The notes under the pieces were generated by a model. It was not told where the DNA came from, searched no databases, and saw only the letters and a program-made list of their open reading frames with translations. The translations under genes were made by a program, and so were the position numbers. A stretch of DNA of 64,000 nucleotides from Rozella allomycis CSF55 (taxonomy: Eukaryota): positions 1 through 64,000 of the forward strand of contig KE561145.1 of assembly GCA_000442015.1 (NCBI GenBank). Direction: 5' to 3'. Positions 4,465 to 58,317 of the stretch are shown one piece after another. Every line of letters begins with the position of its first letter. Positions within the stretch are counted from its first letter, which is position 1.

Positions 4465-6788
4465 ATGGTAGAACAAACGTCAACAATAACTTCAGAGTCC
4501 TCCCAGGATTTTCTGTTCAGAAAATATGGTCCATTAATCGCTTCATTGAAGAGTGGCCCATTATTGCATAATCAAGTCCGAACAATCAAAAACATGATAA
4601 TTGGCAATAGAACAAAAAAAGAAATGTTTATATCAATGGGTATTATTCCTCAGTAAGAAGATAATATTTAAAATGATCAAGGTTAATGAATTGCGCAAAG
4701 GAAACAAATCTTGATGTTGCCACATTGATAGAAATTGTTATCGTTCTGGGCAGCCTTGCTTACGGTAAGATAAAAGCGTTAATGAAATTTTAGGAAGCTA
4801 TAAAACATTGCAAGAACTGGTAGAGAATGGGGTCTGTGAATATTTATTGGAACTACTTGAAAAGTCATTCGACAATTCAAAACTATGTGAAGTTACAACC
4901 AGAGCACTAGAGGCAGTTTTACGATATCATTCTGCTCCAAGAGACTTAATTTTTAGTGTAGGAAATGTTTTACATTTGAAATAGGACACTAGGATTAAAC
5001 TGCTTGTCAAGCTATTGGAATATTCTGGGAATCAAGGCGTTGCTGAAAACTCTGCGCTAATTTTGGCAAATTGCTGTGATTTAGTTGGACATCAAACAAT
5101 GATTGCTGCTGCAGGAGCTGTTCCAAAGTTATTCAAGATGCTTCAGAATCCTTTGCCAAGAACTAGAGAATCAGCATTGGATGCATTAGGATCACTTATT
5201 CGAGATAATAGAGATCTCGGTCGTGCCATAGCTAATTATAAACGTAATGATGAATATTTTGAGCGTCTTAGTCGACAATCAAGCCTGTCCCATTGATTTG
5301 ATATTACAAATGGTTAAAGACCCGAGGCCATCTACTCGGCTACTCTCCTGCACTTGGTAAATTTACCAAAAATAATTTCATATAGCTTGACGAATCTCAA
5401 TAAAGTTTCTGTCATTGAAAATCACGATAAGACGGTGGCTATGACTGTTTTGCCCGCATTAGTTAAATTATTGAATGAAAAAATCGAGATCAAAACAAAA
5501 GCGCCTTTAATTCTAGCGTATTTGGTTAGCGACAATGAAGAGCTTCAAAAAGCTGCATGTGAATCGGATGCAGTATCAAAACTGGCATCTATAATCACAA
5601 AAGCCACAGAGACAACTCCAAATCAATTAAAAGAAGTAACGATTAATTTCTGATAATAGAGACATGTTTGTTGGCAATAGCCGCTATATCAGCTTTAAGG
5701 GAAGAGTGTAGGAAACAAGTAAAAACTAGAAACCAAACGAATGATAGGTCATTGACTGCAAATTGCTTCCACAAATCGTCAAGTCCTTGGAAGATGAGGA
5801 CCCAAGTATTCGTGCAGCTGCCTGCCAATGCGCCAAAAGTTTATCAAGATCTGTTAAAAATTTAAGAACAAATTTAATTGATTCTGGGATCGCCATTCCA
5901 TTATTAAAGTTGCTTAATGATCCCAGCTTGGATGTCCAATTAACTGCATCTGCCACGATTTGTAACGTCGTGCTTGACTTTTCGCCAATGAAAAAAGTAT
6001 AAATCTATTTTTATGGCAATAGATTGTGATTGAAAATAATGGTGTTGAAATTTTAGTTGATTTGTTAAGTCGCGTGACTAACAGCACTATGAAACTTAAT
6101 GTGGTCTGGGCATTAAAGAATTTACTGTATCAAGCGGATTCAACTACAAAGCAGAAAGTAATTTCAATTTTGACGTTTAGTCGTTTGGAAAAGTAAGAAT
6201 ATAAAATACAAGAGAGGTTAAAGACTCTTAAATGACGAAGACTTGGGGATTCAAATTCAATCTGTCAATCTACTAAGAAATCTGGTTTGTGGGAAGGAAC
6301 AAGATATTGATTTGGTTTTGAATAATTTGGGCGAAGCTAAGTTGTTTAAGATAATTGAACATAAGCTCTCATCCAATTATAACGATCTGGTTTCTCAAGT
6401 AAATTTCCCAATTGGTTTACACAAGGCAATCTTTGTCTGCGTCAATATAGCAACAGGGAATCAAAAGCATAAATCGTCAGTTATGGCTAGAGATTCAATT
6501 CTTAGAAATCTTCTTGAATGCATGGTATGGTATAATAAAATACGTTTCTAGTCACATCCTATTCCTGAAGTGCGCGTGGCTACAGTTTGGTGCACAATAA
6601 ACTTAACTTGGACCGAAGATATCGGCGCCCCTGAACATATCGCGAAATTGCGTGCAATGGGTTTTGAAGAAAAGGTAATAAAATTTCATTATTCAAATTA
6701 GCTCAAATTGCTATTGGAAGATCCGGACAGCGAAGTGCGCGATAGAGCAAGAACTGCCGTTGGGCAATTTAATGCAATCATGTCCTAA
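4465..6788 (+). CDS. ARMC8: Armadillo-repeat protein ARMC8/Vid28 (GID/CTLH complex), 12 tiny introns
   Basis: [52 protein letters not shown]. Confidence 0.85.
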
Positions 6789-6883
6789 AGATAATCCTAA
6801 TAAATAAAACAAAATAAATTGATATTAACAATGGTTTTTTAATAGGTAGTAATCATGAAATTTTCGAAATTTCTCATTCCCTA

Positions 6884-9238
6884 ATGAAAATAGATACCCG
6901 TGTTAAATATATTACACGCGAATTTTTGCAAAAAAATTGCTTGAATAACGGAAGAAATAAAATTAGTACTCTAGTTTTACGACCAAAACAGCCAACAGAT
7001 CCAAAGATAAAGGTAAAAAGCTTTTCTTGTTCTAAATAGTATATACAAAATCTAGAAGTTCTACCCGAACTAAATGAAATTGATTTTAGTGATAATATTA
7101 TAGAGAAAATAGAGAATATTGCTTGCTGCACAAAGCTAACAAAGCTATGCCTTAGAAATAATCTTCTTCGGAGTATCGATAATATTTTCCCATTGAAAAA
7201 TTTAACTTGCATTGACTTGTCAGGAAATTTGATAGAAAGAATACCAAGTGCCATTAAGCAGCTTGAAAAGTTACAGACCTTGAAATTGGCGCACAATAAA
7301 ATAGAATTGGTACTTAATTTTGCAATTAAAAAATTAGCTATCGGATTTTGAGCACTTGAAAGGACTTTGGAACTTGATGGAGCTTGATATTCACGATAAT
7401 CCTCTTCAAGGAATAAAATATTGGAGATATTTCATACTGTATCAATGTAGAAGTCTTTTATACTTGAATGATCAAGAAATTCAACAGCACGATAGAGAAA
7501 TATCATATGAAAGATTTGGGCGAGGTATTTGAATTTTCACGCGCTGAAATTTAGCTGAAAAAGAAATTCTACTTGAAAACTTTAAGAATGCAAAATGCGA
7601 GAATTTTAACATGGAAAAGCAATTAATTGATTTGAAAAACCACCAAATCAAATTAGAGGTTGAAAATAAGGATCTGAGAGAGGCGTTAAAAGTGTTTCAA
7701 TTGAGAATAAAAGAACTTGACGAAACTTTATCATTCGAAAAGCAAAAGTCGTCTCAAGAACATTCAAGAAGCGAAAAGCTAGCCATTCAGCTTACAAGGC
7801 CTGACAATCATAGTTCACAATATAATCGCGAAAATCTTCAGGCGACTTTAAATAAACTCAATTCGGTTCTTGAAGAAAAGGATAATGAAATTAAAAATTT
7901 GAAGATGGAAATTTCACATAAATTGTTCGATCAATCGTTGTTGAACCAAAATAACGAATCTAGCGTTTCAAAAGAGATCACTTCTTTAAAATCAAAAATA
8001 AGTGAATTAGAAAAAATAAATTCTGCATTAAATGATAAGTTAAAAATTTCTGAAGCAAAGCAACTTGATCTCGTTGGGACAAAGCTGGCATTGGAATCAA
8101 AAATTGATTTGGTTCTCAAAGCCTTGCCAATTGACAAACGCGATTTTTCATTTCTTCCCACTTTTATTAATGTCATAAATAAAGAAAATAATGAATTAAA
8201 GGAGCAAATTTTCAAGATGCAGCAATCGATTGCCACAAATGATCTAATTGAACAACTTGAAGACTCAAAGACAAAGAAAATGAATGAACATGAATCAGTG
8301 GATTCATTTTCATCTCCTACAATCAAAGAGCTACGAAAGCTTCGCCTGGAAATTTCNTAAATATATAGGACAAGATTTTTTTTTAAATGTATACAATTAA
8401 ATCAATAATCGTATTATTAAGGATGAGGGATCCACATCCAGAAAATTCGGAAACATGGATGGGGCTCGAGCCATGCACCTAGATGTCCTAAAGCATCTTA
8501 GTTTGCCACAAGACAACCAAGATATTTTCAGACTTTAAACCTAAAATTTCAAATTTTCTTTTTCATTTCTTCCCACTTTTATTAATGTAATAAATAAAAA
8601 AAATAATGAATTAAAGGAGCTAATTTGCAAGATGCAGCAATCGATTGCCACAAAAGATCTAATTGAACAAACTTGAAGACTCAAAGACAAAGAAAATGAA
8701 TGAAAATGTATCAGTCGATTCCTTTTCATCTCCTACAATCAAAGAGCTACGAAAGCTTCGCCTGGAAATTTCAAATTCACCAAAATTCGTGGATGCAATT
8801 AGCCAAACACACAATAACCCAAATACGTTAAAAGATAAATCAGATTTTTCGAGATTGAAAGAAAACGATTCTGTTGGAATTGAAGGTCAGGAGCGGATTC
8901 GAAAGGCGCAGCAACTAAAAACTCTAATTCATCAGAGAAAACAAAGGCTTTTGGAGATTCAAGGATTTATTCAAGATGCTAAAAGTGAAAGAATTGAAAT
9001 TCAACAAGAAATTGATAGATTAAAACTTATCAGAAATGAGCTTCGCAACGATGTGATAAATCATGGAGAAAAATCGACCATACTAGATAATGACATCCCC
9101 AAACGCGATTCTCATAGCATTAGTGATAACCATACATTCATTAAAGGTTCGAAAACCTTAGAGGGTATCGACACCATATTTTCTCCTGTGCCATTCGGTC
9201 CAAAACCCCGTTTTTTCTCACCGTCTAGCACATCATAA
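6884..9238 (+). CDS. N-terminal LRR plus coiled-coil protein (centriolin/LRRCC1-like); interrupted by an assembly gap and duplication at 8357-8772
   Basis: SDS22-type LRRs (FSDNIIEKIENI, LRNNLLRSIDNI, LSGNLIERIP) followed by a long coiled coil. Confidence 0.65.
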
Positions 9239-9341
9239 TAACATTTTACTGTATTAAATGATGAAATAAAAGGTACTTTTTTTTAAAAAAAAGTTAAAAA
9301 AATTTATTTAATAAGTAAATTTTTCTTCAAAACTTCAAGAN

Positions 9342-9860
9342 TACCCTAACCCTTTACCCTTTACCCTAACATACCCTAAACCCTAACATACCCTAAACCC
9401 TATCACTAAAGTCACGGAAATGGTGAAAGTCATTTTTTANATTAATATTGTGACACTACTGAATAAGATAGAATTTAAACTAACCCATCACCCTAACCCA
9501 TTACCCTACCCTAACCCTATTACCCTAAACCCTAACCCTTTACCCTAACATNTTAGTGATAATGTAAAAATATTTCCGAAAATTTTCGAATTTCGAATAT
9601 TTCCGAATTAATATTGTGACACTACTGAATAAGATAGTACTTAAACTAACCCATTACCCTAACCCATTACCCTACCCTACCCTAACCCTATTACCCTAAC
9701 CCTATTACCCTAAACCCTAACCCTTTACCCTAACATACCCTAAACCCTTTACCCTAACATACCCTAAACCCTTTAACCTAACATACCCTAAACCCTAACC
9801 CTTTAACCTCTACCCTAACATACCCTAAACCCTAAACCCTATCACTAAAGTCACGGAAAT
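9342..9860 (+). repeat. degenerate telomere-like (CCCTAA/CCCTAAA/TTACCC) array with repeated unique flanks, spread over three short contigs
   Basis: Direct reading; flanks attaatattgtgacactactgaataagatag and tatcactaaagtcacggaaat each occur twice. Confidence 0.9.
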
Positions 9861-11440
9861 NATTGTCATAAGTACGCCTCAACGGCAACAATCGCGTCTT
9901 TCGAGATGGACCGCTTTCCCAAAATCCCTGTCAACGCATGTCAACCCTTTTTGGAATCATGATAAGTGCGACCGGTAGGATGTCGGAATCGATGTCACTT
10001 GCCCCATGCATGAAATGTGAGTTGATGCTTTTGTAATTGCATAAATTCAAATTCTGGAGTTCATTGTTGACATCACAGATTTATTGTTAAACACACAACA
10101 AATCTAAATTGAGAAGATAATATGTGCATACATGGCAACTCGTCCATACGTACACCCGTTTGCGCGCAAACCTGAATGCATAAGGGATGCCGATCCCACT
10201 TGGCGACGAAATTTGCAGCAGGTTAAATAAGATATTGTCGCGATAATTCATGCTGTCTCGTCTATGTAATGAGGAATCGTAAGAGCGATCCCCTTTGTTA
10301 TTTTGATGGGTTAGCCACTTCGACCATTTCGTCATATGATTTTGAAGACGCACTGGCGAAATGGATGTCACCACCGCTCCAGAGCAGTGGATTCAATAAT
10401 GTGAAGACGGCACAAACACGCCGCGCGCGACCAAAAGTTTGTCAGTCTCATTAATCACCTCTTCAACGTGGCTTGTTCACACTATCGACACGTACCTTGC
10501 AGTCTTCTTCGGAAACCAAAATTATTGTAGGCGCCATCCTAGACAAATATCAGTACAATCTCCGCAGCAAGACGGACGTTCATTACGTTGGCGCAAACGG
10601 GCAGAATTTGATTGCATCTGAGAAAAGATTCATCAACTTGAAATATGTCTTAGACTCTTGGATTGTTTCAGTAAGTATTGATGTTTCCAACTTATTTGGT
10701 TTTTTGATTTCTTTTATTTCTTTTGTTGATTGGTTTTCGCGGTGGAATGAAGAAGTATACCGATTCTGGGGGCCTAAATGTTGTATTCGGACTTGCCTGA
10801 TGTTGCTAAATGATCTTCACTGCAATATATGTTTTTCATTTGGTGTGTTTGCCATTGTTGATAACGTGTTAAGACTTAAGATTAAAAACGAGGATCGCAG
10901 TGCTCGTTAACTTAACGGGCAGGTTTTCATTTCAAAATGCCTAAATATTAAAAATTATAAGAACTTCGAATATTACTGTTATCAATGATATAGTTTTTGT
11001 TACCGTACAATGCAAGAATAGGGTTACTCAGCCACAGGCAGACACCATTCGACAACCACACCGGTCAACTGTTTAAAGTGATAATGATGTATACGATCTT
11101 TAATATGGTGTCTCCTGGTGTCGCGGACGACCTTGCANTATTGGATATTTCCAGCTTTTCATTTATGTCACTTCTTATTTCACCTTCTTCATAATACAGT
11201 TCAGTAATAGAATCTTTAGAATTTTTCATTTTTAACTGGGAGANTTTTATCTCTATCTGTTAATGTAAGTTTAGTTTTTCATTTCGCAATTTAAGAAATT
11301 TCGATTTTTCAAATAACTTGGTTACTCGATTAAGCAATGTGACAATGCCAAATGATTGAATGCTGTTACTGACATGAACAAAATTACCATTTCAATCATG
11401 TCATGCTTATTTCCTGTCCTGAACATTATCCAGCCACCCA

Positions 11441-12988
11441 ATGAAAATAAGAGTTGACCTGGACAAACACAGAAAAATTTGGACCAAAATTTTTGACACG
11501 ACACTATACGGTTTTTTAGCTGCGGGAATATTTGGAGGAGTTTTTTTAGGAAGTTATTGGTTCGGAAGTAAGGCTAATATAACCGAAAATGATAAAACGC
11601 TAGATAAAAATGTTCTTGCAGAAAACATTTTGCCAATGAAAATAATGCTTTCTGGGGATCATGCATTACTTGAAGGTAATGTCTTTGAGCCCTCAAAACC
11701 GCAAATATCACCTTTTGTGGAATTGAATGGAATCTCTTTGTCAAAACCCGATGTTTCATATTCTTATCTTGATAAAGTCAATGAAGAAATAGCAGAGTCA
11801 AGTCACGCTCATGTATCCAAATTAATCGTGGAAGAAGATCATGTCACTCCATTTATTTCTGTATCATCTCCAAAACCTACAGTAAATCGCATAACTAACC
11901 TTAGCACCAAAAACGTTGAAAATGTCAGCCAAAACAAATTGGATAATCCACCGAAACCTATTTTCGTTGGCACAAACACAGTAAGAAACGGCCAAAGAAG
12001 GGAATTCACTTCCAATGCAAATGTGTTCAAAAATTATTATAAGAAACTTGAATGCCAAATTGCAGATGCTTTAAATGACAAATCTACTAAAACAACAACT
12101 CCTACCAAAGATAGTCTTAATCCAATTGCTCTGGAATCAGTACGTACCAAAGATAGTCTTAATCCGATCGCTCTTCAACCAGCACCTACCAAAGATAGTC
12201 TTAATCCAATCGCTCTTCAACCAGCAACCAAAGATAGTCTTGATCCGATTTCTCAGATGAAAATGAATAGAGGTTATTCGTATCTGAATCCTATTAGATT
12301 TGTTATCGCTGTTTTAGTCGGAATAGTCCTTAAAGTTAATGAATCCTTTATAAAGGCTATGTTAGGCAAGAAAGATCATAGAGATGTAGATTTGCCAGAT
12401 TTAGTAGATGAGCCCTTGACTTCACGCAATGTAGATGAAATTGTCCATAAAAACAAAGAAAGGAAGAAAAAAAGTCTTTATGAGAAAATAAGCTCATATT
12501 TTCAAAGAGTCAACAAGATTCCACGGCCACTATCGTCTTTGAAATATTCTGATCCCCATCAATTAGTCATGAGTTCAAATCAAAATAGCATTAGCAGCAA
12601 AAAAATTGAAGACTCCATTTCAAAATCGAATCGTTTTGAGTTTTTGAATTATTATGAAATTCTAGGTGTTTCTCCATTGGCAAAGCAGCATCAAATATCA
12701 TCAGCTTTTAAGAAACTTGCACTACGTTATCATCCAGATGTAAATATACTTTTTTGCACTAATTAGAAAAGCCGAGAAAACAATGATGAGTATTTCAAGA
12801 AAATAGTTGAAGCATACAATGTTTTGAACGATGATAAAAAGAGGGTCGAATATAACCAATTACTTCGCATAACAAACAAAAGTCCTATTGCAAGGGATAT
12901 TTTAGGGTATGGCGCCATTTTCGCTAGACTGTTTAATATTAAAAATAACTATTCCTTGCCCACTATTAAATTCAATGCTACAAAATAA
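11441..12988 (+). CDS. membrane-anchored protein with internal tandem repeats and a C-terminal DnaJ domain
   Basis: Hydrophobic N-terminal helix; NYYEILGV..AFKKLALRYHPD, then a 27-nt intron, then KSRENNDEYFKKIVEAYNVL. Confidence 0.75.
12101..12254 (+). repeat. coding minisatellite, about 3.7 copies of a 39-42 nt unit (TKDSLNPIALQPA)
   Basis: accaaagatagtcttaatcc-like unit repeated four times in frame. Confidence 0.9.
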
Positions 12989-13098
12989 ATCAAATTATTT
13001 GCAGATTTTATATTACATTATTTCATAAGCCACAAATCCATCAAAGTCACGTTTTTCGAATGAAAAAGGTACTTTCAGCCACCAAGCCACCATAAAAT

Positions 13099-13858
13099 AT
13101 GGGTCCAAAATTTTCTGTACTATTTTATTTTACTATTCTCTGTATTTGCGTTGCCTCAAGTCCTATAAAGCATGATTCAATGGCTCAAGCAAATGAAAAT
13201 ACAAGTAAGCTGTATCATACATTGGTATGTAGGTATCGAAATGCCGATTTGGGAATATCCAAAGCGAATTATATTCCCAGCGTTCAAAAGTAGTAAAGCT
13301 CAAAATGTGTTAAGCAAAATCCAATCCTTTCTTTCAAGGAAAGGGGTTTCAGAATCTATCAATCCAAATGACATCGGTACACACGAAGAAAGCAGTCACG
13401 AAAAGGTTTTGCCCCATTCATTATCTACGCCAGATATTGATTCTCTAAAAGATAGAGTACTCCAGAAAGATGGATTAGACGACAAGNTACTCCAGAAAGA
13501 TGAATTAGACGAGAAGAACATACAAAAAGTCGAAGCCCAACTTGATGGTATGAATAATGGAAGTGTACCACCTATGAATGCTAGTGTCCAAAGAGAGGAA
13601 AGTAAAGATACTCATATACCCAAAGAAAATTGCTGCCCTCGCGCAAATGTTAATGACAAAGTTCGTTTAAATAATGAATCAAATGAAATTCCACAAAGAA
13701 AAGACATAAATAATGANGACATAAATAATGAAACTATTGAAAATAAAAGCACCCTATACGTAGTCGGATTCACATTGGCAGCCCTTGTGTTTGTCAGCTG
13801 CGTTGCATTAGTTATTCGTAATTTCAAATACAAAAGCATGTTAAAATCGCATAAATAA
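13099..13858 (+). CDS. type I membrane/surface protein (signal peptide, low-complexity ectodomain, C-terminal TM)
   Basis: MGPKFSVLFYFTILCICVASSP joined by intron gtaagc...tgtag to an ORF ending LYVVGFTLAALVFVSCVALVIRNFK. Confidence 0.7.
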
Positions 13859-13879
13859 TAATAAAAACATGCTTCTTTA

Positions 13880-14679
13880 TTAAAATAGTTTTACTATTGA
13901 GTTTTTGTATAAGAGAATATATGATAGACCACTGGCCAATGTCGATGCACCAATCACATATTGTAAAACATATAACAATGCTGTATGGGATAAATCGTAT
14001 ACTTTAAAGAATAAAGTACCTCCAATAAGAGTAATTTGAAGAGCAGTATTCAACTAATTGCGAGTAAAACTAAGGCATACTTTACTAATCGTCAATGGCC
14101 TGATTTCAATTGAAGGAGTCTTCAAGTCAAAAAATTTTCTGATTGTTTTCTCTAAAGGTCAGACTATTTAGATTACCGGTGGAGTTAACATTTTGTACCT
14201 TAAATACAAAGTAGCACCTAATAGGCAAATATCTCGACCAATAATTAACGCTGTTAACCATGCTATCATAAATCTTAGANATGCTATAATAAATCTTAGA
14301 TGAATTGTAGTACTTGGGAGCAAACAAATTTTCCACAATGATAAAGTACAGCAGCTCATAAGTACTTTGTCGGCAAGAGGATCCAAAAATGTTCCCAGTA
14401 CTGTTTTCTGTCTAAACTTGCGAGCTATATATCCATCTGCATAAAATAAGAAGACTTTATTAACCATACTGCGTCGCTTAGCCCAGCAAAAACAAATCCT
14501 GTCAGGGCCAGAGGGTAGTTTTGATTCAAGATATTGTATGCAATGTAAGGAGATAAAATTAACCGTGCAGTAGTAAGTGCGTTTGGAAAAGTATATATAT
14601 TTTCTCTTTTTTTAAAGATTGAAAATGCCATCCTATTCTTTAAGATTAACTTTGATGAAAGAAAAGTATTGGACAACAT
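13880..14679 (-). CDS. CRD1: cardiolipin synthase (CDP-alcohol phosphatidyltransferase)
   Basis: ENIYTFPNALT, SDAxDGYIAR, LGTFLDPLADK, IIGRD, SKLNTALQ; has an N gap and a probable 1-nt insertion near 13930. Confidence 0.85.
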
Positions 14680-14768
14680 GATGGAATTTCTGAAAAACGG
14701 ACAACGTTTTTGGAATAGTTGCTTAATTATTTAAAAAGCTATTGTGAAATGATAATTTTGTTTATATT

Positions 14769-46437: not shown

Positions 46438-46467
46438 CACTTTGCAAAATAAAATAACTTAACATTT

Positions 46468-47573
46468 TTATTTAATTGCCTTCATCTTGCACAAAATGGA
46501 CCCTCCCAGCCAAGAATTGCCGACTAAAGAGAAATTTGTGTCTTTAATTTTTATGAAATTTAATAAATGATCCATATTTTGCGTCCTTAAAGCTTCTCTT
46601 AATGTTTGTTCTAAAGCACTCGAAAAGCCGCTAGCAGAACAAGTTCCACCAGACAGTAAAATATTTTCCATTAAAGTTTTTCTTGTGTCGCAAGGACACT
46701 AAATTTTTTTTGTCAAAAGTTTACCTTTTTTATTACTTTTACGATCAACTTTGATATATTCATATCTTCCCATCCCTCAACAAAAATTGATCTATAAATA
46801 TCTGAGAATATTCTTGACGGGACTTGGAAAGTGTTATCTTTATAATCGAAGGATATCATCGTTTCATTTACATCTATGCTATTTTCAAGTTTGACTAGTG
46901 AAAACTTGGTTTTTAATGCTTCGATATAATTATTGTCAAAATCTGTCTCTGGAAATAATGATTTTAATGAATTTTCAAGTGCAGAACTTACGTCTTTCCC
47001 TCCAATCGGTATGATCTCAACCAGATTACACAACTGCCGTCCTTCAAATATAGGTGTGACTGTACAGTCATTGTGGCCACAATCTATCACTAATCCACTC
47101 GAACAGCCATATGAAATCATGGCAGCTATCGAGGAAGGTATATATCGAAGACTATCACACTAGATCATTCTTGAAAAAAAATTGTACCATGTAGCAATCT
47201 GTTAAAATTTCATATAAATAGTCTTTGATATAAGATGGTAGAAAATGATTTTCAATTATTATCACCTTCTTTCTGCTATTAAGTTGAAAATGTTTCATTT
47301 GGATTTCTTTTAGACAGTCCTTTATACCTTCTCTATAATCTTCACGGGAAGGTATCTTTAATTATCTTCAAATACATAAACTACTTTTGCATTGTTCTGC
47401 ATTATTTCATAGCATCCAATATTATCCTCAAGTGAGGCAACATTATAAATATGTTTTTGATAATTTAATATACAACGTGGAGCTATTTCACCAGCGATTC
47501 CTGCCTTGAAAGAATGTAAACTAACGTCGAATACAATAGTGTCATCAGTGTGGAAATTTTTCTGAAAACTCAT
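46468..47573 (-). CDS. actin-related protein, Arp10/Arp11 (dynactin)-like
   Basis: KAGIAGEIAPRCI, SGLVIDCGHNDCTVTPIFEG, NILLSGGT, SWLGGSI. Confidence 0.75.
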
Positions 47574-47846
47574 AATTTCCTAAGGGTCTGTTTCATGATA
47601 CTTCTTCTTCTATAGAGCCAGAGGCGGAGCATCAGATAAAAACCCTAAAGTACAATGGTCAATACAATTTTTTAATGCACATCATGGCTCCTTATTACCC
47701 GAAACGCTATAATTCTTTTTGAAAATATGTAGAATGATTTATTTATTTGATTTATGCAAAGCTACGAAGGATCAACGCTAAATGTGGTTAGGTCGTTTCC
47801 AACATTTGTTAAAATTTGTCACACGTTAGTTCTAAACATAGAATGT

Positions 47847-47919
47847 GGCTTTGTGGTCTAGGTGGTATGATTCTTGCTTAGGGTGCAAGAGGTCCCGGGT
47901 TCGAATCCCGGCAAAGCCC
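47847..47919 (+). tRNA. tRNA-Pro, anticodon AGG, intronless
   Basis: Acceptor stem GGCTTTG/CAAAGCC, anticodon arm CTTGC-TTAGGGT-GCAAG, T arm GGTTCGAATCC, followed by a TTTTT Pol III terminator. Confidence 0.97.
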
Positions 47920-47950
47920 TTTTTGTGTCCTTAAAGAAACATATATTTAT

Positions 47951-49312
47951 TTAAATGTATTCTTCAATATCCATCAAATAGTCTTTGAATTTAAGAGCAA
48001 ATAATTTTGCCACGTCCTCTACCTTGAACGGCTCATTTTGATAAACTTGCCACTCATGGAAGGTACCAGCCTCTATGGTAGGTAAAGTGACGTCTCTCTG
48101 TACTTTATTGAAGTACCTAACAATAATTTAATTCTATATATACTTCGATTTTATCGCTGGATAATGACAATCATCCCCGAGTATTGAAGAAATTACAAAG
48201 CTTATTACACAAAACAGCCAGAATTACTGATACAGTTGTTCGTCTGTTATATTTAAATTTGCCACACCAATTAACCCCATGAATACATTTATAAATTGGT
48301 CCACAAATGTTTTGAAATCATATTGGTCGTCCAAACAATTTGGGCTTTCATTAATCAAAATTAAATCAATAAACTTATCGACGCTGTGAGGAATTGTCTT
48401 CAAGGTTGTAAAAGAAAAATTTCTTTTACGTGTCGTTAAATAGTAATCCCTTGACATCTATAAATGAATCTACAGGATTGCCATACTAGAAACGGTTTAA
48501 TTACAAGGTTAGTTTTTAAATGAGCCTGAAGCTTCTTAATTGACTGACCAGCAGATATACAATAAACCAGTGTTGACGGATTGATCTTTTGAAGATAGTA
48601 AAATATAACATTACTGATTTCCAAAGATCTTCCATACGGAAAAATTGGCTGCTTGGGACGCAAATGAACAGAAGAGAACTTGATTTTGCAACATTCTCAT
48701 TATCGAAGCTGATTTGAATTCCAAGTTTACTAAATTCTGGATATTGATCAGGTCGTCTAGTGGACACAAAGATTTGATGGGCACTATAATTTGCTCAATA
48801 AACACGTTAATGATTCTTACAGTAATCTAATAAGCTATAAAGTATTCTTTGCCCCATATTTCCAAATCCAATAATTCCTATTTTGAAATTATCGTCTTTC
48901 CACGGATCTTGACCCTGTTAATTATAGTTTAGTTGATTACAGATACGCACGATGGCATCGATGAAGTTTTTTGCTCGTCATCTGATGACACGATACCATC
49001 TTCATCATGTAGCGTGCTTTCATTATATGAATTTGAGTTCGAAAAAGTAGATTTGCTTCTAATATCACCAATCTTAGTTTCCTGCCTTTCAGCCCTGTCG
49101 TACACGATTTGTCGCTGGAATGATTCAGTTACGAGTGCCATGTGAAGGCATTGTAGTATTATACTCTCTTCCATTGAATGATTTGCTTCTCTAATTTGGG
49201 CGTATATTTTTGAGTCAGTAGAACTATCTTGAATCGATTGTAAGACTAAATTTTGTGTATATCTTCTCACATTGTCGATTTTCTTTTTGCGTTCGCTTAC
49301 AGACGTTATCAT
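47951..49312 (-). CDS. NADP-dependent oxidoreductase domain protein (NOXRED1/P5CR-like)
   Basis: KIGIIGFGNMG, IFVSTRRPD, FDNENVA..LLFICVP. Confidence 0.7.
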
Positions 49313-49364
49313 GGAATAAACAATAATTCGGACTTTACAAAAAATACTACAAAAATACAAAAAC

Positions 49365-49954
<590 letters not shown>

Positions 49955-50040
49955 AATTTATGTTTTGATGTGTAAATAAATCGCTATGAGCATGTATACA
50001 AATTTCACCGACCAAATTTTGATAAATTTTGTAAATTGAA

Positions 50041-52238
50041 ATGGCAGAAAAGAGGGATTTTTTCTTTGGCTCAGGGAGTGACGACAAAGGAATACTTTCT
50101 GGCGACGAAAATACAAGACCTTTATTCTCTGGTGTGTTCTGTCCAGATAAGAAGTTTGGAAGCACTAGCTCTCGAAAGAGAAAGCGTCGTCTCAAACAAA
50201 TTAAGTATGATGAAAATGTGAGAGAAGGAGGATATCAATCTGATTCAGTGATAACACCAAAAAAAGCTTCGACGAAATTTACCTATGCATGTAGCAGCAC
50301 AGATTCTTCAATGGGTTCTTCAAGAGAGGACTCATTTAATCGATTAGGAGAACTAGAAGATATGAATATGGACAAGGACAGTGAAAATGAGGTTAAAAGA
50401 AGATATAAAGTTCTGCCAGTTAATATGTCTTCAAAAGAAGTTTTCAATGCTTTGAATAAGAGAAAATTTAGAAAAAAGTCAAATGTATTTGTATGTGATA
50501 GTGAAAAGTCGAACACTGGCATTTCTTTTAATAAGATATTTGGTTTAAACAATCATGTTAATAGGATTAAAGAAATAATATTCTTTCCTTTGATGTACCC
50601 TGAAATATTTAAGCGACTAAATATTCGTCCACCAAATGGTCTCTTATTTTATGGACCCCCTGGTAAACAATAGTCTAAACCTGGAAAAGGGACTGGCAAA
50701 ACAATGATGGTTCGATCTCTTGTGAATGCTTGCTCGAGCCACTTAAAGCAAAAAGTTGCATTTTTTAGCAGGAAGGGGGGTGATTTACTGGACAAATATA
50801 TTGGTGAAGGCGAAAAACAGCTAATTGAATTGTTCGAAATGGCCAACGCACTACAGCCTTCAATAATTTTCTTTGATGAGATTGACGGTAAGGGGTTTAA
50901 TATAAAGGAAAAAAGGGTTAGCTCCAGCGAGAAATAGCAAAAATCAAGACCAGTCGCACATATCTCTAGTCAGTACCCTTCTTGGTTTAATGGATGGAGT
51001 CACTTCACAGAGTAGCCATGTTGTTGTTATTGGGGCCACCAATAGGCTTGACAATATTGATCCAGCGCTTAGACGCCCAGGTAGATTTGATTATGAAATG
51101 TTCTTTCCACTACCAAACGAAGACACGCGCTATGAAATTTTAAAAAATCTTACAGTTGAAGAATTTGCATCGCCATACGATTTATCCGATGATTTCATAA
51201 GAGAGTTGGCCAAACGGACTGAAGGCTTTAGTGGCGCAGACATAAACGGACTGTGCAAAGAAGCAGCGATCAGAGGGCTACGCAAGTCTTGTTCTGAAAT
51301 ATATGATATTAGCAAACCAATTAATTATTCTGTAGAAAAAATGAAATCTATTATTGTGGATAGTCAGTGCTTCAATGAAGCCATGGAGAAGGTCGTAGGG
51401 TCTACTACAAAATATAGTATCGCTAATCCAAGATTGAAAGAATTGGAGCCAATTTATTATGAATTGCTTTCTGATCATTTTCATTTAGCGCTTGAAACAA
51501 TAAACAATTTTTTGCATGATATTCCTGGTAAATAATATCGTTTCTTGTCAAAGGAAATCGATACCCAAGGATATTAATCAGCGGTGTTCGCGATAACGGG
51601 CAATCTGAGGTCCTCTCTGCGTGTCTTTTTGACCTTAAGAAAAGAGGTATTCATATTGAATACCTAAATATTGCAGACCTTTGCTTCAAAGTAATCAATT
51701 CTAAGCATAATGTTAGAGTCCTGATGCAGTCTTAACCAGTGCTATTTCTCAATGCTCAAAACATCAGCCAAGTGTCCTTTGCATTCAAGACTTGATTTCT
51801 CTTCATAACTTAACGGATTCTGAAAATTCCGCAAATATTTGGATACTTTTCGCCCATGCGATTCAGTATTTTATTAAACCCGGCGACAAAATAATTGTCG
51901 TGGCTTGTTCTGATGTGCCTTTCTCAAAACTTCCTGAGGAAATACAAGGCTTATTTTCATCAGATTACATTGAACTTAACTCTTTAGCACAAGTAAAACA
52001 AAATGTAAATCTGGACAAGGAAAAAATTCGAAGGTTGCTAGAATTCCGCATTGAAGAATTTTCCGCCTTTGTGAAAGAAAGCTTAAATAACAGCCAGGTA
52101 TCCATTGATAAAGCCAAACTTTTGGAAACATTATTGTCTCGCTCTCCTAAACTCTCTCTGGGATCATTAGAATCATTGTGCGCAATGTTCTTTAAAAACA
52201 TTAAAACGTCATTGAATACCACCAATGTATTTGAATAA
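50041..52238 (+). CDS. ATAD2/Yta7-like AAA ATPase, no bromodomain evident
   Basis: LFYGPPGTGKT, KVAFFSRKGGDLLDKYIGEGEKQL, PSIIFFDEIDGLAP, DPALRRPGRFD. Confidence 0.85.
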
Positions 52239-52295
52239 ATTAAATTATATAACATCCATCTATAATTAATTTTTCATTGAATTATTCAAGGAAAG

Positions 52296-54594
52296 CTATA
52301 TTTTATTTTTTAGCATCGATTTAGCAATGAACAAGTATTTGTCGACCGCTTCTTCAATTCTCTTTTCTAAACTTTTTCCACTTCCATGCCCAGCCTATTT
52401 GATTGTAAACTCATATTTACCTTTGTTTCAATCCTTATTAAAAGAGGATGATCATTTTTGGGCAAATTATACTGAAGTTCAGATATCCATTTGTATGAAT
52501 GAAGTGGCACAACTCGATCGTCATGATCACTGGTCATTACTAGCACGGGTGGATATTGCTTTGAAGAATCAACGTTATGGACAGGCGAATATCTTTTAAA
52601 AATGTGAAGAATGTATACTTTGACAAACATTCGAAATGCTCTACAATGTCTGGGTTACCATATTCATCCATCCAAGCATGGCCGATTGTAAATTTATGAA
52701 ATTTCAACATATCCAAAACCCCAACCTCGGCGATTGCACACCCAAATAATTCGGGTGCTTGATTTACACATGCCGCCACTAATAATCCTCCATTGGACCC
52801 ACCATTAATCGCCAACAATGAGGGGCAAGTGTAATTATTAGCAACAAGGTACTTCGCAGCCCATTGAAAGTCATCAAAAACATTTTGTTTTTTATTTAAG
52901 ATCCCGGCTTTATGCCATTCCTCGCCATATTCGCCGCCTCCACGCAAATTCGCGATTGCAATAGTCATATTTAGCTCATCTGCCGCTGCGGCCATGCTTG
53001 AACTAAAAAAAGGTGTCAGAGAAATGTTAAATCCCCCATATCCATATAACAGACATGGTGTTTGTCCATTTCTTGGGATGGATCTTTTATTAAAAATGAA
53101 CATGGGGATTCTCTGAGAATCTTTGCTTTCATAGAAAACTTGCTCTATAACGAATTTAGAGGGTTCAAACCCCACAATTTCATCTTGCCTCCAAATGGTT
53201 GGGGTTGTGGTCAAGTCAGATAGGTCATATTCATACACCAATCCAGGGGTATTGAAAGAATAAAACTTAAAAAATACAACAGTATCCTTTTTTCTGCCTT
53301 TAATGTAAGCAACAGAGCCAATATCTAGTGGAATGCAAGTCAGGTGAGTCCCAGACAAGTCAAAGACATCAATTACATTCTGTTTTCAAATCATGAATCG
53401 TTTACCTTGACATCTTTCATATAAACACAAATAAGTTTATTTTTTGCAACGCAGTAGCATGATTCTAACACGTCTGCCGCCTCAGGAATAACAACGTCGA
53501 CCTTTAAAAGAAATGTAAAATTAATACTAATGAAGTGTTATTGATGTCTATTTTAATCAATTTTTCCTTTAAAGCATTTGAATTGGTCTTCAAGTAGAAA
53601 ATATTATCTTCATTTGTAATGTATTCGTAACTGGCTTCAAAATCATCGAAAAGCTTAATTATTTTGTGCTTGGAAAAATCACAAATGTCTAATTGTTGCA
53701 CAAAAAGTTTGTTAGCATTTTCTGTAGAGCGACTTGTGGAAATGATTAGATACTTCCCATCATCAGACACAGTGGCGCTGGGCCGCCAATATGGCTCATC
53801 GGAATATTCAAATATTAAAATATCGTCTTTTTGGCAAGTTGCTAGTTTATGGTAGTACAATTTCGGAAACTTATTTAGGTTAGTTTCGGTACCTTTATCT
53901 ATTTGTTTTATTTGTGGATAGCGCTTTATATAACAAGGACAATTTTATTACAGTGTAGAAAAATCCATCATCATTATGTACCCAGGAAATCGAACTAAAT
54001 TTTACCCATTCAATTCTGTCTGGAAGCTTTTTCTTCTCCACGTCTTGAATTTGAATTGTCACCCAGTCACTGCCATTACATGATACACCAAAGGCAAAAT
54101 ATTTCCCAGATTCACTGAAAGAATATGTGTTCAAAGACGCACTCCCGTCAACTGCCAACTCATTTGGGTCGAAGAATACTTCTCCTGGGTCACTTATTGT
54201 TCTTGTTTGGTATATTTTTCGTATAAATTTAGAAAAGGTTTCTTACGAATGATTAAATGTTCCATCATTATAGAAATAATAGTAGAATTCACCCGATTTA
54301 AAAGGTGCTTCAGTTTTTTCGTAGTTGAAGAATTTTTTGAACCTTCTACATTCATAACAGTATTGTTACCTATCTTTAAGTTTGCTTCTAAGAGGATCAT
54401 CATTGATATACTCAAAGAATAGTTCATTTTGTGACGAAACAAATGCCTGGTGAAACTAAATGATTACTTCATACCCTCGTTTCATCAGAGTCAGGATTTT
54501 CAAGCCATGAATAGGGGTCAGAGATTGATCTACCACAACAAAGGTATTTAGAATTAATATCTCTCGTCACAAATGGAAAATTGAAGCTGCTCAT
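52296..54594 (-). CDS. PREP: prolyl oligopeptidase (S9A)
   Basis: DPYSWLENPD, LYGYGGFN, GGSNGGLL, DHDDRVVP, AGHG. Confidence 0.95.
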
Positions 54595-54635
54595 TTGTAA
54601 AATTCACAAAAACAATATTACGAAATGTCATAAAT

Positions 54636-55649
54636 TTATATAGAAGCATTATAGTTTTGGTTGCATCCGTTAATACCAAAGGTAAGGAATCGTCCCTTTT
54701 CTGGGAATCTATAGTTTCTTCCCTTTGTATCAATCACTCTAAAGAAATAGTTCTGGCAGCTTTGATTTCCTAATAAATTCCCATCATTGAGTTTGAAATA
54801 GTAGACACCTCTGTTTGATGAGCCATATAACAAGGAGAGACCCCTGGCCTGCTGTCCGATTTGAATCCATATTTTAGATGGCGGTGCATCATTAACATAA
54901 GTGACTAGAAAAAGCAGGTTATTTGTGTTAAGGGAGGTCAATTTAGGACTTACATGCGAGCCAATAACCAAAGCAGAGTTATAATCTGTATTGCTAGCAC
55001 CTCCAAAATCCTATTTTGTTAAATCGTTTGTCCCATTACTTGGATCACGCAGTTATTTGAATTGGCCACACCTAACTCTGTCGCTGACGCCGCAAGTAGG
55101 TTTTCACAGTGTCCCATTTTTGATCTAATCCACCCATCCTAGAATATCCATTTAAAGAATAGATTACCATTATTTCCACTGGGGATATTGGACCAGCATA
55201 AATATTTTCAGCAATCCAAGCAGGTTTCTTATAAAATGACCATATCCTGCTTGACCAAGAGCAAGATCCAAACTTGTAGCATTCACTGGGGCAAGTATCA
55301 TGTTGCCAACATCTAAATTGATGAACAAAATCTTGAATACCCTGGACTGCGCTGCATTGAAGTACAATGGAACCTTCCGGATTGAGTTAGTGCCATATTC
55401 CAAAATAGATGTCTAGCAGGACTTCCGTTGTAGAGACAATTTCCGGTACCAGCGTTGGAAAAATTGTTCAAATATGATTTTGGATCTGGATTGGAAAGAC
55501 ATTTCAAATACTTTACCTATTCTAACGGCGTTAGTTAGAGTGTGTATAGTTCTCTCCAAGTACGTGGTTTGAATGTCTCCCTGGAAAGTGGTGTATTGCT
55601 GTGAAAACGCATTGCTTATAAGAAAGGCCAATAAAGTAAACGATTTCAT
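54636..55649 (-). CDS. secreted CAP/SCP-domain protein
   Basis: Signal peptide; TLTNAVR, RFHCTSM, QHDTC, AENIYAG, WIRSKMGHCENL. Confidence 0.75.
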
Positions 55650-55704
55650 GTCTTTAGCAGGATCGGGATCGGAAAATAAATTGGAATGGACTAAAAATAC
55701 TTTA

Positions 55705-57166
55705 TTAGCGCATGGTAACTAATTCTTCAGCTGATGTTGGATGTATTGCTACGGTGTTATCAAAATCCTTCTTTGTAGCGCCCATTTTAATTGCGACAGA
55801 GAAGCCTTGAAGAATTTCATCGGAAGACGGGCCAACTAAATGTAGCCCCAAAATCTTTTCATCGTCACGAGAACAAACCATTTTATAAGCAGTGGGAACT
55901 TTATTTTTTGATAACGCGTAAAACATTCCATTAAAGCGAGTTTTATAAATGACAATATTTTCACTTCCATATTTTTGGCGGGCTTCTTCTTCAGTCAACC
56001 CAACTGTACCGGCGGGAGGATGAGAAAATACTACAGTTGGAATATTGGAATAGTCCAGTTTGGAATCGGACTTACCGCCAAATATGCGATCAACCAATCT
56101 TCGACCCGCTGCTATGGCGACTTTGACATAAACTTTAATTTATTACCTGGTGTTAATAAAGCTTTGCCGCAAACATCTCCCAAGGCGTAAACACCAGGAC
56201 AGCGAGTATTTTGATACTCGTCAACAAGAATACATCCATTTTCATCACATGTAACGTTAGCTTTTTCCAAGTTCAAGTAATTGGAATTAGGAGCTCTACC
56301 AATTGCCCAGATCACTAATTCATTGTCTTTCTCAGTTTCAACGAGGTTTTGGTGGGAAAATTTGACGTCGATATTTCCGGAATCGCTTTTTACTAAAGAT
56401 TCAACGGAGGCATTTCGGATTATTCGTATACCACTTTTTTCCATGTGTTCAGAAACTGTTGAAGATATTACTTCATCGAAATGGCGCAAAACAGAGCCAT
56501 ATCTGCACAAAATAGTTGTATTGCAACCAAAAGTTTGAAGTACGTTTGCTATTTCTACAGCGATATATCTTTATAGGTTGAAAAATTAAAATACCCAGAG
56601 CCAATAATAAACGCTTTCTTTGGGAGCTCCTTAAGGCCAAAGAAGCCATCTGAGGTTACACCCAAATCTGATCCGGGAATCGATGGTATAATTGGATATC
56701 CACCTTTTCAATGCGCTAATCATTACATACCTGTTGCAATTAATATATTTTTAGCAGTTAAAAATGAGCTCGTTCCATCCTCATGCGTAACTCTAAGAAT
56801 ATTCGGTTTTTCAAAACAGGCAGATCCAAATACCACATCTACTTTTTCCTTGTCCAAATTTCTTTCATATATTTTCCTGAGCCTTTCAATATATTCTTCT
56901 CTATTCTCTACAAGGGTTCTCCAATTATGACCGTTATTTTCCACGTCGAATCCGTAGTCTGAAGAGACAGCAAATAACTCGTTTAATGATGCAGCATTGT
57001 ACATAATCTTTTTCGGTACACAGCCAAGGTTTACACAAGTCCCGCCTAAACCATTCCTCTTTGACTCTATCAACACCACATTTTTGCTGTAAAGAGATGC
57101 AGCTCTTCTTGCAGACGCTAGACCACCTGAACCACCTCCTATAACAGCGAAATCGTAATACTTCAT
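55705..57166 (-). CDS. GLR1: glutathione reductase
   Basis: [41 protein letters not shown]. Confidence 0.96.
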
Positions 57167-57311
57167 ATTTGTGAATTTTCTAGACGGGAAAACTTTCAGA
57201 ATCAATAAAAAATTGTTGTGGTACATTGCACTGTATTGTTAGTCATTTAAGACAAAATCTTGAAAGAATAGTAAATCATAACTGGCCCTTGAGAAAAATC
57301 ATAAACACAAA

Positions 57312-58317
57312 ATGGTAAAAGGATTGTTTCATATTGATAGAAACTACGAGTTCGACTTTCGCATAAAGTTTCCACTTTAGATCTCGATGAAAACATGAAA
57401 ATCCAAGAATTTATAGACTTAATTTGTGATCAAGAAGCTAAAGAGAGTCTTGGTACCATCAGGACCGGCGTGCCTCCGAGATCGGTGGCGATTGCAAACT
57501 TAAATATGTCACTCAAAGATATAGGAATTAAAGATAGAGATACAATAACTATTGAAAATGGCAATACATTCAAAAGAAAAACCATTTCCAATGAAATGAT
57601 GGTAATAAGAAAAATGGCAGATGATAATTCTTGTTTATTTAGTTCAATCGGGTACAATTTAGACTGTAAAAATCATGAGATATTTGTTGGAAAATAAACG
57701 TGCATGCCAGGCTGATGCCTTGCGACAAAAAGTCGTAGAGTTTATTCTCTCTCACCCAGATGACTATAATTCCGTAATTTTAGGTAAAAACGTATCGGAA
57801 TATTGCCAATGGATTTCTAAACCTACATCTTGGGGTGGTAACATTTACTATAGATTAAGGACAAGGCGCGATAGAAATTTCAATCTTTTCAAAACTATAT
57901 AAAATACAAATAGCATCAATTGACGTTAAAAGTCTTAGAGTAGATCTATTTGGTAAATTCAAACTTCTTTTCATTTGCAGGAGAGGAAGACAGTTTTCCT
58001 GATCGCTGCTATATTGTTTACGATGGTATTCATTACGACTGCATTGTTTCTACATATAGCAATAATGAAACCGCTCAAGATATAACAATTTTTTCGTCAA
58101 AGGATGATTTTGCCTTGGCGTCAGCAATTTCAGTTGTTGAAGAGATTTCAAAGGTATTCAATTCTTAAAAATGATAGATAAGAAAAATATGTTTACAGAT
58201 TTGGCTAATTTCACAATCCGATGCGAGACTTGTCATTCTGGCTTCATAGGTACTGATGACGCTCAAAGACACGCACAGGAAACTGGCCACACTAATTTTG
58301 CAGAATTTAAAAATTAA
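57312..58317 (+). CDS. OTU1: OTU1/YOD1 deubiquitinase
   Basis: MADDNSCLFSSI, WGGAIEI, YDGIHYD, C2H2 finger CETC..HAQETGH. Confidence 0.92.

Follow-up and report, generated by a model that had tools for sequence, protein, structure and literature searches.

Predicted introns of Rozella allomycis show a 26-nt length floor and an adenine held at +23 from the donor

Results

Short introns in the window

The window (64,000 nt, a stretch of DNA of the fungus-like parasite Rozella allomycis, the species to which protein matches also point) carries ARMC8, CRD1-like, CPSF2 and OTU1 genes, a gene labelled CCDC87 and a CDK-family kinase, in which very short introns are predicted (Table 1). The CRD1 product is a CDP-alcohol phosphatidyltransferase, while the name CCDC87 is unconfirmed, its three exons giving no Pfam match. 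Introns were called from DNA with a frame-only model and are predicted introns; the model was run on 843 kb of the 11.86 Mb genome (7%), 600 kb of which come from one contig.

Table 1. Features of the window. Positions with a plus sign are distances from the donor; A23 is an A at +23.
Feature	Length	Position	Strand	Remarks
Whole window	64,000 nt	1..64000		148 introns at posterior of at least 0.9, 147 of them 26-31 nt
ARMC8 gene		4465..6788	+	12 predicted introns, 26-31 nt
ARMC8 intron, TAGAG end	26 nt	5636..5661	+	A23 (5658) belongs to the skipped TAG; posterior 1.0
ARMC8 intron	29 nt	5719	+	homolog span matched in 40/40
ARMC8 intron	26 nt	5997..6022	+	A23 three bases before terminal G
ARMC8 intron, purine-rich	31 nt	6193..6223	+	A23 at 6215; skips AGs ending at +20, +22 and +24; span matches 37/40 homologs
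ARMC8 intron	27 nt	6399..6425	+	in frame, stop-free; spliced span matches 31/40 homologs
CRD1-like intron, TAGAG end	27 nt	14150..14176	-	T at +23; A of the skipped TAG at +24 (14153); junction frame-only; posterior 0.94
CCDC87 intron, TAGAG end	27 nt	15163..15189	+	A of the skipped TAG at +24 (15186); posterior 0.99
CPSF2 intron	28 nt	44450..44477	-	passes over a TAG ending at +20 and takes the one at +28; C at +23, A at +24
OTU1 intron	29 nt	58154..58182	+	A23 (58176) belongs to the skipped TAG; AAG used; posterior 0.99
Candidate GT-TG intron	27 nt	17189..17215	+	model only, posterior 0.68
Candidate GT-TG intron	27 nt	19144..19170	-	A23; model only, posterior 0.82
Candidate GT-TG intron	28 nt	63217..63244	+	A23; CDK-family kinase; posterior 0.83

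An earlier note on this DNA had described five introns, in ARMC8 (5636), CRD1, CCDC87, CPSF2 and OTU1, in which a proximal TAG is passed over for a more distal AG, and a 31-nt ARMC8 intron given as an example of a purine-rich sequence. Coordinates and ends of all six proved correct, and the frame-based model recovered all five skipping introns with posteriors of 0.94-1.0. That the reading frame forces the distal AG also held: with the called donor, use of the proximal TAG led to a stop in 5/5 cases. Other open donor/acceptor pairs at these introns would delete 6-15 residues, and one such pair in CCDC87 would make a 15-nt intron. The ends were described as GAG or AAG, which is right for ARMC8, CRD1, CCDC87 and OTU1 but not for CPSF2, which uses TAG. 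The A of the skipped TAG sits at +23 or +24 in four of the five.

Several junctions could be compared with proteins. The ARMC8 5636 junction is identical in the public protein P0001; it lies in a variable loop, so that only the frame is fixed there. The length of ARMC8 5997..6022 is fixed by homology, the same span being found in 40/40 homologs, and ARMC8 6399..6425 is retained as coding in P0001. The CPSF2 junction is exact (upstream residue 37 corresponds to human 219 and downstream residue 4 to human 225, with five residues between, as expected), and the downstream exon of OTU1 encodes the OTU1 zinc finger in the frame set by the 29-nt intron. One sequencing run, X1, aligned to positions 30400-50000 of the window, yielded mainly pieces below 90% and no joint at any predicted intron, which counts neither for nor against the calls.

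A one-base length cliff and an acceptor rule

The length floor was measured with a uniform-length model, free of any length or motif prior, with four pairs of decoy boundaries as control. The intron-length histogram suggested by the earlier note, drawn over the 843 kb, shows a one-base cliff: 10 introns of 25 nt are followed by 199, 217 and 166 introns of 26, 27 and 28 nt. GT-AG ends by themselves suffice to produce this peak, and none of the 4 decoy pairs gave one. Lengths fall between 26 and 33 nt in 1,328 of 1,345 introns. In-frame introns of 12, 15 and 18 nt, proposed by a length-only model, mostly disappeared once the donor was modelled, and were discarded as noise.

Within the window, the acceptor is the first AG from +26 in 147 of the 148 introns called at a posterior of at least 0.9, and 103 of them have an A at +23. 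Over the whole sample the rule "first AG from +26" is correct for 1,319 of 1,327 introns, to some extent a circular result, as the data themselves supplied the floor, whereas a stricter rule (first A from +23, AG 3 nt later) is correct for 1,170. AGs ending at +18 to +25 are no rarer than background, with 248 in 6,840 frame-discriminated positions against an expectation of 246, while skipped AGs at +26 or beyond number 6 of 757, well short of the 27 expected (p = 8×10−7). A TAG at +27 is nevertheless skipped in two introns although A23 is present. The skipping of AGs reported in the earlier note is real and general. Its wording, that weaker AGs are used over good YAGs, holds for the skipping, since 70 of 1,327 introns pass over a YAG and end in an RAG. 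It does not hold as a preference: GAG is rare (59 of 1,327), AAG is an ordinary acceptor (384 of 1,327), and the ratios to background at position -3 are 1.29 for T, 1.0 for C, 0.87 for A and 0.35 for G. GAG and AAG ends over YAG are a by-product of the proximal AG sitting too close.

An adenine anchored to the donor

Base counts inside introns were made with a model lacking internal or acceptor terms (n = 1,327). An A is found at +23 in 959 of these introns and, for lengths of 26, 27, 28, 29 and 30 nt, in 302/345, 251/370, 206/317, 142/196 and 38/56, that is 65-88% against a background of 33%. A fully agnostic model gave 62-92%, and the frequency was 69-73% in each of three sources. The earlier note had seen no CTRAY branch motif in many of these introns; a lack of any branch signal does not follow, as this single A carries 0.46 bits, compared with 0.08 bits for the base at -3 of the acceptor. 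Two of its related observations stand: there is no pyrimidine tract (7.8%, against 9.1% upstream) and no excess of CTRAY (65, against 81 +/- 9 in shuffled sequence). A CTRAY branch at +18, for which CTGAT/CTGAC in ARMC8 5636 and CRD1 were candidates, was rejected, since CTRAY shows no enrichment and the columns around +18 are not conserved.

The position of this A follows the donor. In introns of 26 to 30 nt it lies at -4, -5, -6, -7 and -8, receding from the AG base for base, and the log-likelihood is 426 for a donor-anchored column against 120 for the best acceptor-anchored one (234 against 44 for the 27-30 nt subset). A24 is commoner where A23 is absent (106/206 versus 128/406, p = 3×10−6), and A23 is most frequent in 26-nt introns (p = 1×10−13), which leave no room for slippage. 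Where an AG ends at +26, A23 was present in 302 of 345 uses and in none of 4 skips (p = 3×10−4). Since such an AG is skipped only when A23 is missing, in all likelihood the ruler operates by way of the branch position. A23 is nonetheless missing in 43 of the 345 26-nt introns, and 163 of 1,327 introns have no A at +23 to +25; the latter are richer in U and end more often in YAG.

TG ends

Among 15 non-AG ends modelled, only TG rises, with an apparent 97 of 1,970 in posterior weight (about 5%); CG and GG show no such increase, at 15 and 14 of 1,970. A23 is present in 27 of 38 high-posterior TG introns. No AG ends at +26 to +31 in 37 of these 38, which says little for a use of TG through want of an AG, because AG introns also rarely have rival AGs (52 cases in 1,327). 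TGs inside AG introns are not depleted at offsets 3-5 from the end. Of the candidates in the window, the one in the kinase has an exact junction relative to CDK12 (residues 136/137).

Splicing machinery

The donor is GTA(A), its information stopping at +4, and the flanking exon context is weakly U2-type (T at -2 in 48%, purine at -1 in 59%, T at +1 in 51%). U12-type introns have a long conserved RTATCCT donor; no such donor was found here, the information ending where it does. The U2 (139 bits) and U6 (88.5 bits) snRNAs carry GUAGUA and ACAGAGA, and the U1 candidate, at 69 bits slightly below the 69.5 cut-off, carries ACUUACCU. The best reading is that these are introns of the major spliceosome. 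Genes for SF1 and Slu7 were found, and a U2AF65-like gene was recovered in pieces, below the whole-protein cut-off. Prp18 is also present (PF02840 above cut-off, with matching yeast Prp18 structures). Loss of Slu7, Prp18 or SF1 is thus rejected, as are altered U1, U2 or U6 motifs and an altered alpha-finger of Prp8, a region that is intact. The Prp18 loop, however, is degenerate. The family has VT[MAS]VGIH[EA]R after WPxG, and G[IVL]HxR is kept in 125 of 148 homologs; Rozella lacks this motif, is one residue longer, and reads VMGPINLNER in both L116 and the public protein P0122.

Discussion

The mechanism that we favour, and hold to be rather probable, is that the donor positions a branch A at +23 and that the first AG from +26 is then used. 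The DNA itself shows the lengths, the A at +23 and its anchoring to the donor, the tolerance and depletion of AGs and the TG ends; the identity of +23 as the branch and the sequence of the steps we infer. Once the GTA(A) donor is bound, the geometry of the spliceosome would bring the branch register of U2 to lie about 22 nt farther on, making +23 the branch nucleotide, preferably A, with slippage to +24 or +25 where +23 is not A. The acceptor would then be the first AG with its G at +26 or beyond, the base at -3 counting for little; nearer AGs would be bypassed as being too close to the branch A or overlapping it, and TG may serve where no AG lies within about +26 to +32. The interpretation of the earlier note, that distance from the donor dominates acceptor choice, is partly supported: the tolerance and depletion of AGs agree with it, while the A at +23 is an internal signal that it had missed.

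A direct ruler between donor and acceptor corresponds to the view of the earlier note. Here the acceptor would be fixed by a protein or an RNP spanning about 26 nt, which would account for a floor that is independent of A23 and for the better score of the floor rule over the strict branch rule. The branch would then lie upstream, dispersed around +20, with A23 as a protein contact or a secondary preference, which would escape a branch-acceptor distance of 3 nt; A is indeed mildly raised at +20 in 26-nt introns (42% versus 33%, p = 5×10−4, 11 columns tested). Yet no column from +9 to +21 comes near A23 in conservation, and a fixed span predicts neither the compensation by A24 nor the skipping of +26 AGs only when A23 is missing, so that we regard such a ruler as unlikely. 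Recognition anchored at the 3' end by U2AF and SF1, with deletion pressure narrowing the lengths down to a minimal size and skipped AGs falling in a branch-proximal exclusion zone, is more improbable still. In its favour, Rozella has SF1 and a U2AF65-like gene, humans are known to use the first AG beyond a minimum (PMC5378181), and the introns without an A at +23 to +25 are richer in U and in YAG ends, but the retreat of the conserved A from the AG with length, and the lack of both pyrimidine tract and CTRAY excess, largely contradict it. An artefact, whether from indels in the assembly, bias in the model or pseudo-introns that stay unspliced, we consider very improbable. Ns are scattered through the assembly, which also disagrees locally with a public protein in at least one place, the pattern is predicted from DNA, and individual TG ends may stem from base errors. 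Against this, decoy boundaries gave no peak, TG alone rises among non-AG ends, junctions in ARMC8, CPSF2, a CDK and Prp8 are exact by homology, and P0001, which comes from a 14-kb contig (78 kb here), has the same 5636 junction.

If the branch is at +23, the spacing to the acceptor would be 3 nt in 302 of 1,327 introns, about a quarter. This would be shorter than the published distances that we found: AGs too near the branch are skipped in human and yeast with a minimum of about 8 nt and 10 nt respectively, or 7 nt in yeast without Prp18 (PMC5378181, PMC10711555), and the branch is 5 nt from the terminal G in Yarrowia (PMC2483917), as is the putative branch A in Stentor (PMC9505925). Too-near AGs are likewise bypassed in Rozella, with an inferred minimum of 3 nt. 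A branch so close to the terminal G may be sterically hard, and would challenge the docking model. In yeast, loss of Prp18 or of its conserved loop is reported to relax acceptors towards GAG, UG/CG/GG and branch-proximal sites (PMC10711555), and what is a mutant state there would be the normal one in Rozella. Most speculatively, the degenerate loop could permit both the short distance and the GAG and TG ends. The link with Prp18 is one correlation in one species. The full version, in which Rozella is a natural Prp18-loop mutant with a near-complete, canonical-looking spliceosome that counts the branch 22 nt from the donor, can take an acceptor G a mere 3 nt beyond the branch A and has a second step lax enough to make GAG and TG ends routine, is possible, though we tend to doubt it; if true, it would require an undescribed docking of the 3' splice site. 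The loop as a possible cause is testable in yeast.

Comparable introns are described elsewhere. Myxobolid myxozoans and Dicyema have ultra-short introns (median 22-27 nt) with a GTa donor, an AG acceptor, canonical U2 and a weak stretch of As, farther from the AG in longer introns, which was speculated to be the branch (PMC13644364). Introns of that type go with retained U2AF1 and U2AF2. The GTa donor, bare AG, missing pyrimidine tract and receding A, which amounts to anchoring at the donor, are common to both, and the introns seem to work alike, by convergence; theirs have 2-3 weakly conserved As, those of Rozella one sharp A23 and a hard 26-nt floor. The skipped-AG test, the TG ends and the Prp18 loop belong to the present analysis and are absent from the main text of that report. 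Stentor coeruleus, with introns of 15-16 nt in which the A takes position 10 (length 15) or 11 (length 16) (PMC9505925), resembles Rozella by its single positionally fixed, putative branch A without consensus, its canonical U2/U6 motifs and its AU-richness. Its A moves with the acceptor, whereas that of Rozella is fixed to the donor; its Slu7 and Prp18 were reported as not found, and both are present here; and its single length contrasts with the 26-33 nt range that allows AG choice to be tested in Rozella. Yarrowia, Trichomonas, Giardia and Encephalitozoon have strong WCTRAY branches, which in the first three are fixed to the acceptor (PMC2483917). These introns share with Rozella the lack of a pyrimidine tract and a branch, putative in Rozella, very near the AG; they differ from it in that Rozella has no motif excess, a far worse acceptor-anchored fit and a donor-fixed A. 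Paramecium (23-26-nt introns, lengths of 15-100 nt, length affecting splicing efficiency; PMC12862383, PMC5014332) and mikrocytids (16-17 nt; PMC10245619) also have many tiny introns that vary little in size; the available text gives no branch position for either and, for Paramecium, no hard floor like that of Rozella. For R. allomycis itself, two putative introns of about 30 nt in S23 and a density of 2.5 introns per kb are in print (PMC6349667, PMC8476143), and the floor, the +23 A and the acceptor rule do not appear in the available text of these reports. A metagenome scan with an ARMC8 exon returned one locus from 313 pattern matches, 41% identical and uninformative on conservation in other rozellids.

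Rozella bears on how the spliceosome measures the donor-branch and branch-acceptor distances, and on how far these can shrink: its natural introns, more than a thousand in 7% of the genome, combine a one-base cliff with very little sequence information, so that the two minima can be read from them. On the practical side, public Rozella gene models can err at in-frame 27-nt introns, as P0001 does by keeping one, and such errors matter since Rozella serves as outgroup to microsporidia.

Intron lengths

Introns were predicted from DNA by means of a two-strand gene model that scores coding frame and stops only, applied to 59 pieces (842,997 nt) representing 7% of the 11.86-Mb, 1,059-contig assembly. 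When lengths of 12 to 120 nt were allowed uniformly, with GT and AG as the sole splice motifs, 13, 10, 199, 217, 166, 114, 55 and 27 introns were found at 24 to 31 nt, respectively. With decoy boundaries (4 pairs, same uniform-length model), no length between 20 and 35 nt had more than 38 calls. The length histogram, proposed as a check in the earlier note, rises sharply between 25 and 26 nt over this 843-kb sample. In a second run, length and donor were learned and nothing else. Of 1,345 introns kept at a posterior (gene-model probability of a call) of at least 0.9, 1,328 measured 26–33 nt, 5 were shorter and 12 longer; within the window, 147 of 148 measured 26–31 nt. We conclude that the observation of the earlier note is real, and general within the sampled 7% of the genome. 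Removal of one intron containing N left 1,327 introns (1,304 distinct) for analysis.

Three 25-nt calls (posteriors 0.93–1.0) are possible rare exceptions to this floor. Four window junctions had no 26–33-nt solution in the model; non-canonical ends, micro-exons or sequence errors may lie behind them. Across the sample, 12 GC-donor calls reached a posterior of at least 0.8, several beginning GCAAGT; the GC-AG candidate in the window has an A at +23 (Table).

Table. Coordinates of the introns and other features discussed
Feature	Location	Strand	Length (nt)	Posterior
ARMC8 intron	window 5636-5661
ARMC8 intron	window 6193-6223		31
CRD1 intron	window 14150-14176
CCDC87 intron	window 15163-15189
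CPSF2 intron	window 44450-44477
OTU1 intron	window 58154-58182
ARMC8 intron retained in P0001	window 6399-6425		27
ARMC8 intron, 3 extra residues in P0001	window 4958-4984
25-nt call	G000:C861:217365-217389		25
25-nt call	G000:C861:558335-558359		25
25-nt call	L043:983-1007		25
No 26–33-nt solution	window 3957-4048	-
No 26–33-nt solution	window 23123-23417	+
No 26–33-nt solution	window 34239-34283	-
No 26–33-nt solution	window 55691-55719	-
GC-AG candidate	window 24465-24495	+	31	0.95
GT-TG candidate, CDK12 homology	window 63217-63244	+
GT-TG candidate, model only	window 19144-19170	-		0.82
GT-TG candidate, model only	window 17189-17215	+		0.68
GT-TG candidate, model only	window 36310-36336	-		0.51
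GT-CG candidate	window 54220-54246	-	27	0.39
GT-CG candidate	window 22320-22346	+	27	0.33
AG/GTA double unit	G000:C861:490927-490986
AG/GTA double unit	G000:C861:548556-548610
AG/GTA double unit	L029:1323-1375
AG/GTA double unit	L029:1856-1909
Prp8 intron, 28+28	L121:1884-1939	-	56
Prp8 intron, two 29-nt copies	L121:201-258	-	58
Doubled Prp8 coding stretch	L121:1337-1429	-
Prp18 gene	L116:819-1898	+
Prp18 exon with loop	L116:1561-1753
Prp18 ASFAY	L116:1632-1646

A conserved A at +23

With a model holding neither internal nor acceptor terms, an A was found at +23 from the donor in 88, 68, 65, 72 and 68% of 26-, 27-, 28-, 29- and 30-nt introns (background 33%), and in 69–73% in every source taken singly. 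Relative to the acceptor this A shifts from -4 to -8 as length goes from 26 to 30 nt, and a donor-anchored fit was far superior to an acceptor-anchored one (426 versus 120). Information amounts to 1.37 bits at +3, 0.42 at +4 and 0.46 at +23, at most 0.03 in the other columns to +24, and 0.08 at acceptor position -3. Neither CTRAY enrichment nor a pyrimidine tract was found in the introns of the sample, as the earlier note had remarked. Its ruler also stands, in that distance from the donor governs the acceptor, but its view that branch signal is missing does not, given the A at +23.

Choice of the acceptor

The AG test was limited to positions at which a cut would change the reading frame, so that the learned length prior was avoided. 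AGs ending at +18 to +25 were at background (248/6,840, 246 expected), and skipped AGs at +26 or later were rarer than expected (6/757, 27 expected). In 58 cases a pair of AGs, each in a different frame, was available at +26 or beyond; the first was chosen in 52 of them. All four AGs skipped at +26 lacked A23, which was present in 302 of the 345 introns using an AG there; A24 is commoner where A23 is missing. A preference for GAG or AAG over YAG is not borne out: among 1,327 introns, 70 do skip a YAG for an RAG, but GAG is rare (59) and AAG ordinary (384).

The five introns cited in the earlier note, and its 31-nt ARMC8 example, have the coordinates and ends described; in each of the five, use of the proximal TAG with the called donor results in a stop. 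The A of the skipped TAG lies at +23 in ARMC8 and OTU1, and at +24 in CRD1 and CCDC87; the one skipped in CPSF2, at +20, merely comes too soon. The CPSF2 junction is exact against human CPSF2, and the CRD1 and CCDC87 introns are supported by frame (the gene name CCDC87 being unconfirmed). Among the first 40 of 54 ARMC8 homologs of 600–800 aa (from 119), the spliced span is the majority at 9 of 12 junctions (31–40 of 40 each); support is mixed at 4653 and 5244, and 5636 falls inside a variable loop. One ARMC8 exon shows 100% identity with a protein recorded for Rozella allomycis CSF55. The public ARMC8 protein P0001 (943 aa) appears to be ARMC8 fused with the next LRR gene; it retains one in-frame intron and carries extra residues at another.

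Candidate TG ends

When any dinucleotide was allowed as intron end, TG was the sole clear riser, with 97 of 1,970 in posterior weight and still climbing slowly in the last round; TT (28) and AA (23) came next. Among 38 TG calls with posteriors of at least 0.6, 37 begin with GTA, 37 measure 26–29 nt, and 27 have A23 (p 2e-6). The junction of one window candidate is exact against CDK12, where the AG-only call is 55 nt. Posteriors of the GT-CG candidates are low. G at -3 is rarer when at +26 or later, falling from 45/715 to 14/612 (p 4e-4); TG depletion at offsets 3–5 in introns was tested, and none was found. Any single TG end could be a base error.

Mechanism

The likeliest mechanism, which we hold to be reasonably probable, is one in which the donor would fix +23 as the branch register, the acceptor would be the earliest AG at +26 or beyond, and TG would serve as fallback. 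Several observations count against a branch at +23. A strict branch rule is correct for 1,170 of 1,327 introns, compared to 1,319 for a plain 26-nt floor, the latter figure being partly circular; 163 introns have no A at +23 to +25 and are U-rich there; a TAG at +27 is skipped in two introns having A23; and A is mildly over-represented at +20 in 26-nt introns. In the rival reading, which we consider rather unlikely, the span from donor to acceptor would be set directly and the branch would lie further upstream.

If +23 is the branch, the terminal G would lie 3 nt from it for 302 introns, 4 nt for 251 and 5 nt for 206. The consulted parts of published reports give a distance of 10 in yeast, 7 without Prp18 (PMC10711555), and about 8 in human, where the counting convention may differ (PMC5378181); we counted 5 from the published consensus in both Yarrowia (PMC2483917) and Stentor (PMC9505925). 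Skipping of AGs too near the branch is an already known rule. The pattern has a myxozoan precedent: myxobolids and Dicyema are the nearest published case, and their weak A stretch moves off the AG as length grows, according to the main text of PMC13644364 (its supplement S9 may bear on the spacing given above). Rozella short introns receive passing mention in the part of PMC6349667 consulted. A search of largely open-access literature, with genome papers mostly outside it, found no paper on the Rozella 26-nt floor, +23 A, TG ends or Prp18 loop.

Splicing machinery

The U1, U2 and U6 motifs look canonical, as do SF1, Slu7, a U2AF65-like gene and the alpha-finger region of Prp8. Prp18 is present with a degenerate loop that exceeds the loop of homologs by one residue: after WPxG it reads VMGPINLNER, both in the sampled piece L116 and in the public protein P0122. 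Among the best 150 of 263 matches, less P0122 itself and one without the anchor, 125 of 148 homologs retain G[IVL]HxR; the 23 exceptions are variants by 1–2 residues, or apparent fragments or retained introns. In yeast, as excerpts of PMC10711555 describe, this loop adjoins bases -3/-4 of the acceptor, and acceptor choice becomes relaxed when the loop is deleted; without Prp18, GAG, BG and branch-proximal sites become active. By analogy, such effects may extend to acceptor choice in Rozella. Also in Prp18, ASFAY in L116 corresponds to ANDAY in P0122, a mismatch consistent with the inversion of 5 bases flanked by short inverted repeats, either assembly error or polymorphism.

The Prp8 gene holds two double-unit introns, one with a junction exact against human Prp8 (1482/G/1484), the other made of near-identical copies; their sequences suggest tandem duplication and stepwise splicing. 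Four of 26 distinct GTA-starting calls of 50–64 nt likewise divide at AG/GTA into two 26–30-nt units (chance about 0.004 per call). A short Prp8 coding stretch is also present twice, flanking an N, and is probably an assembly artefact.
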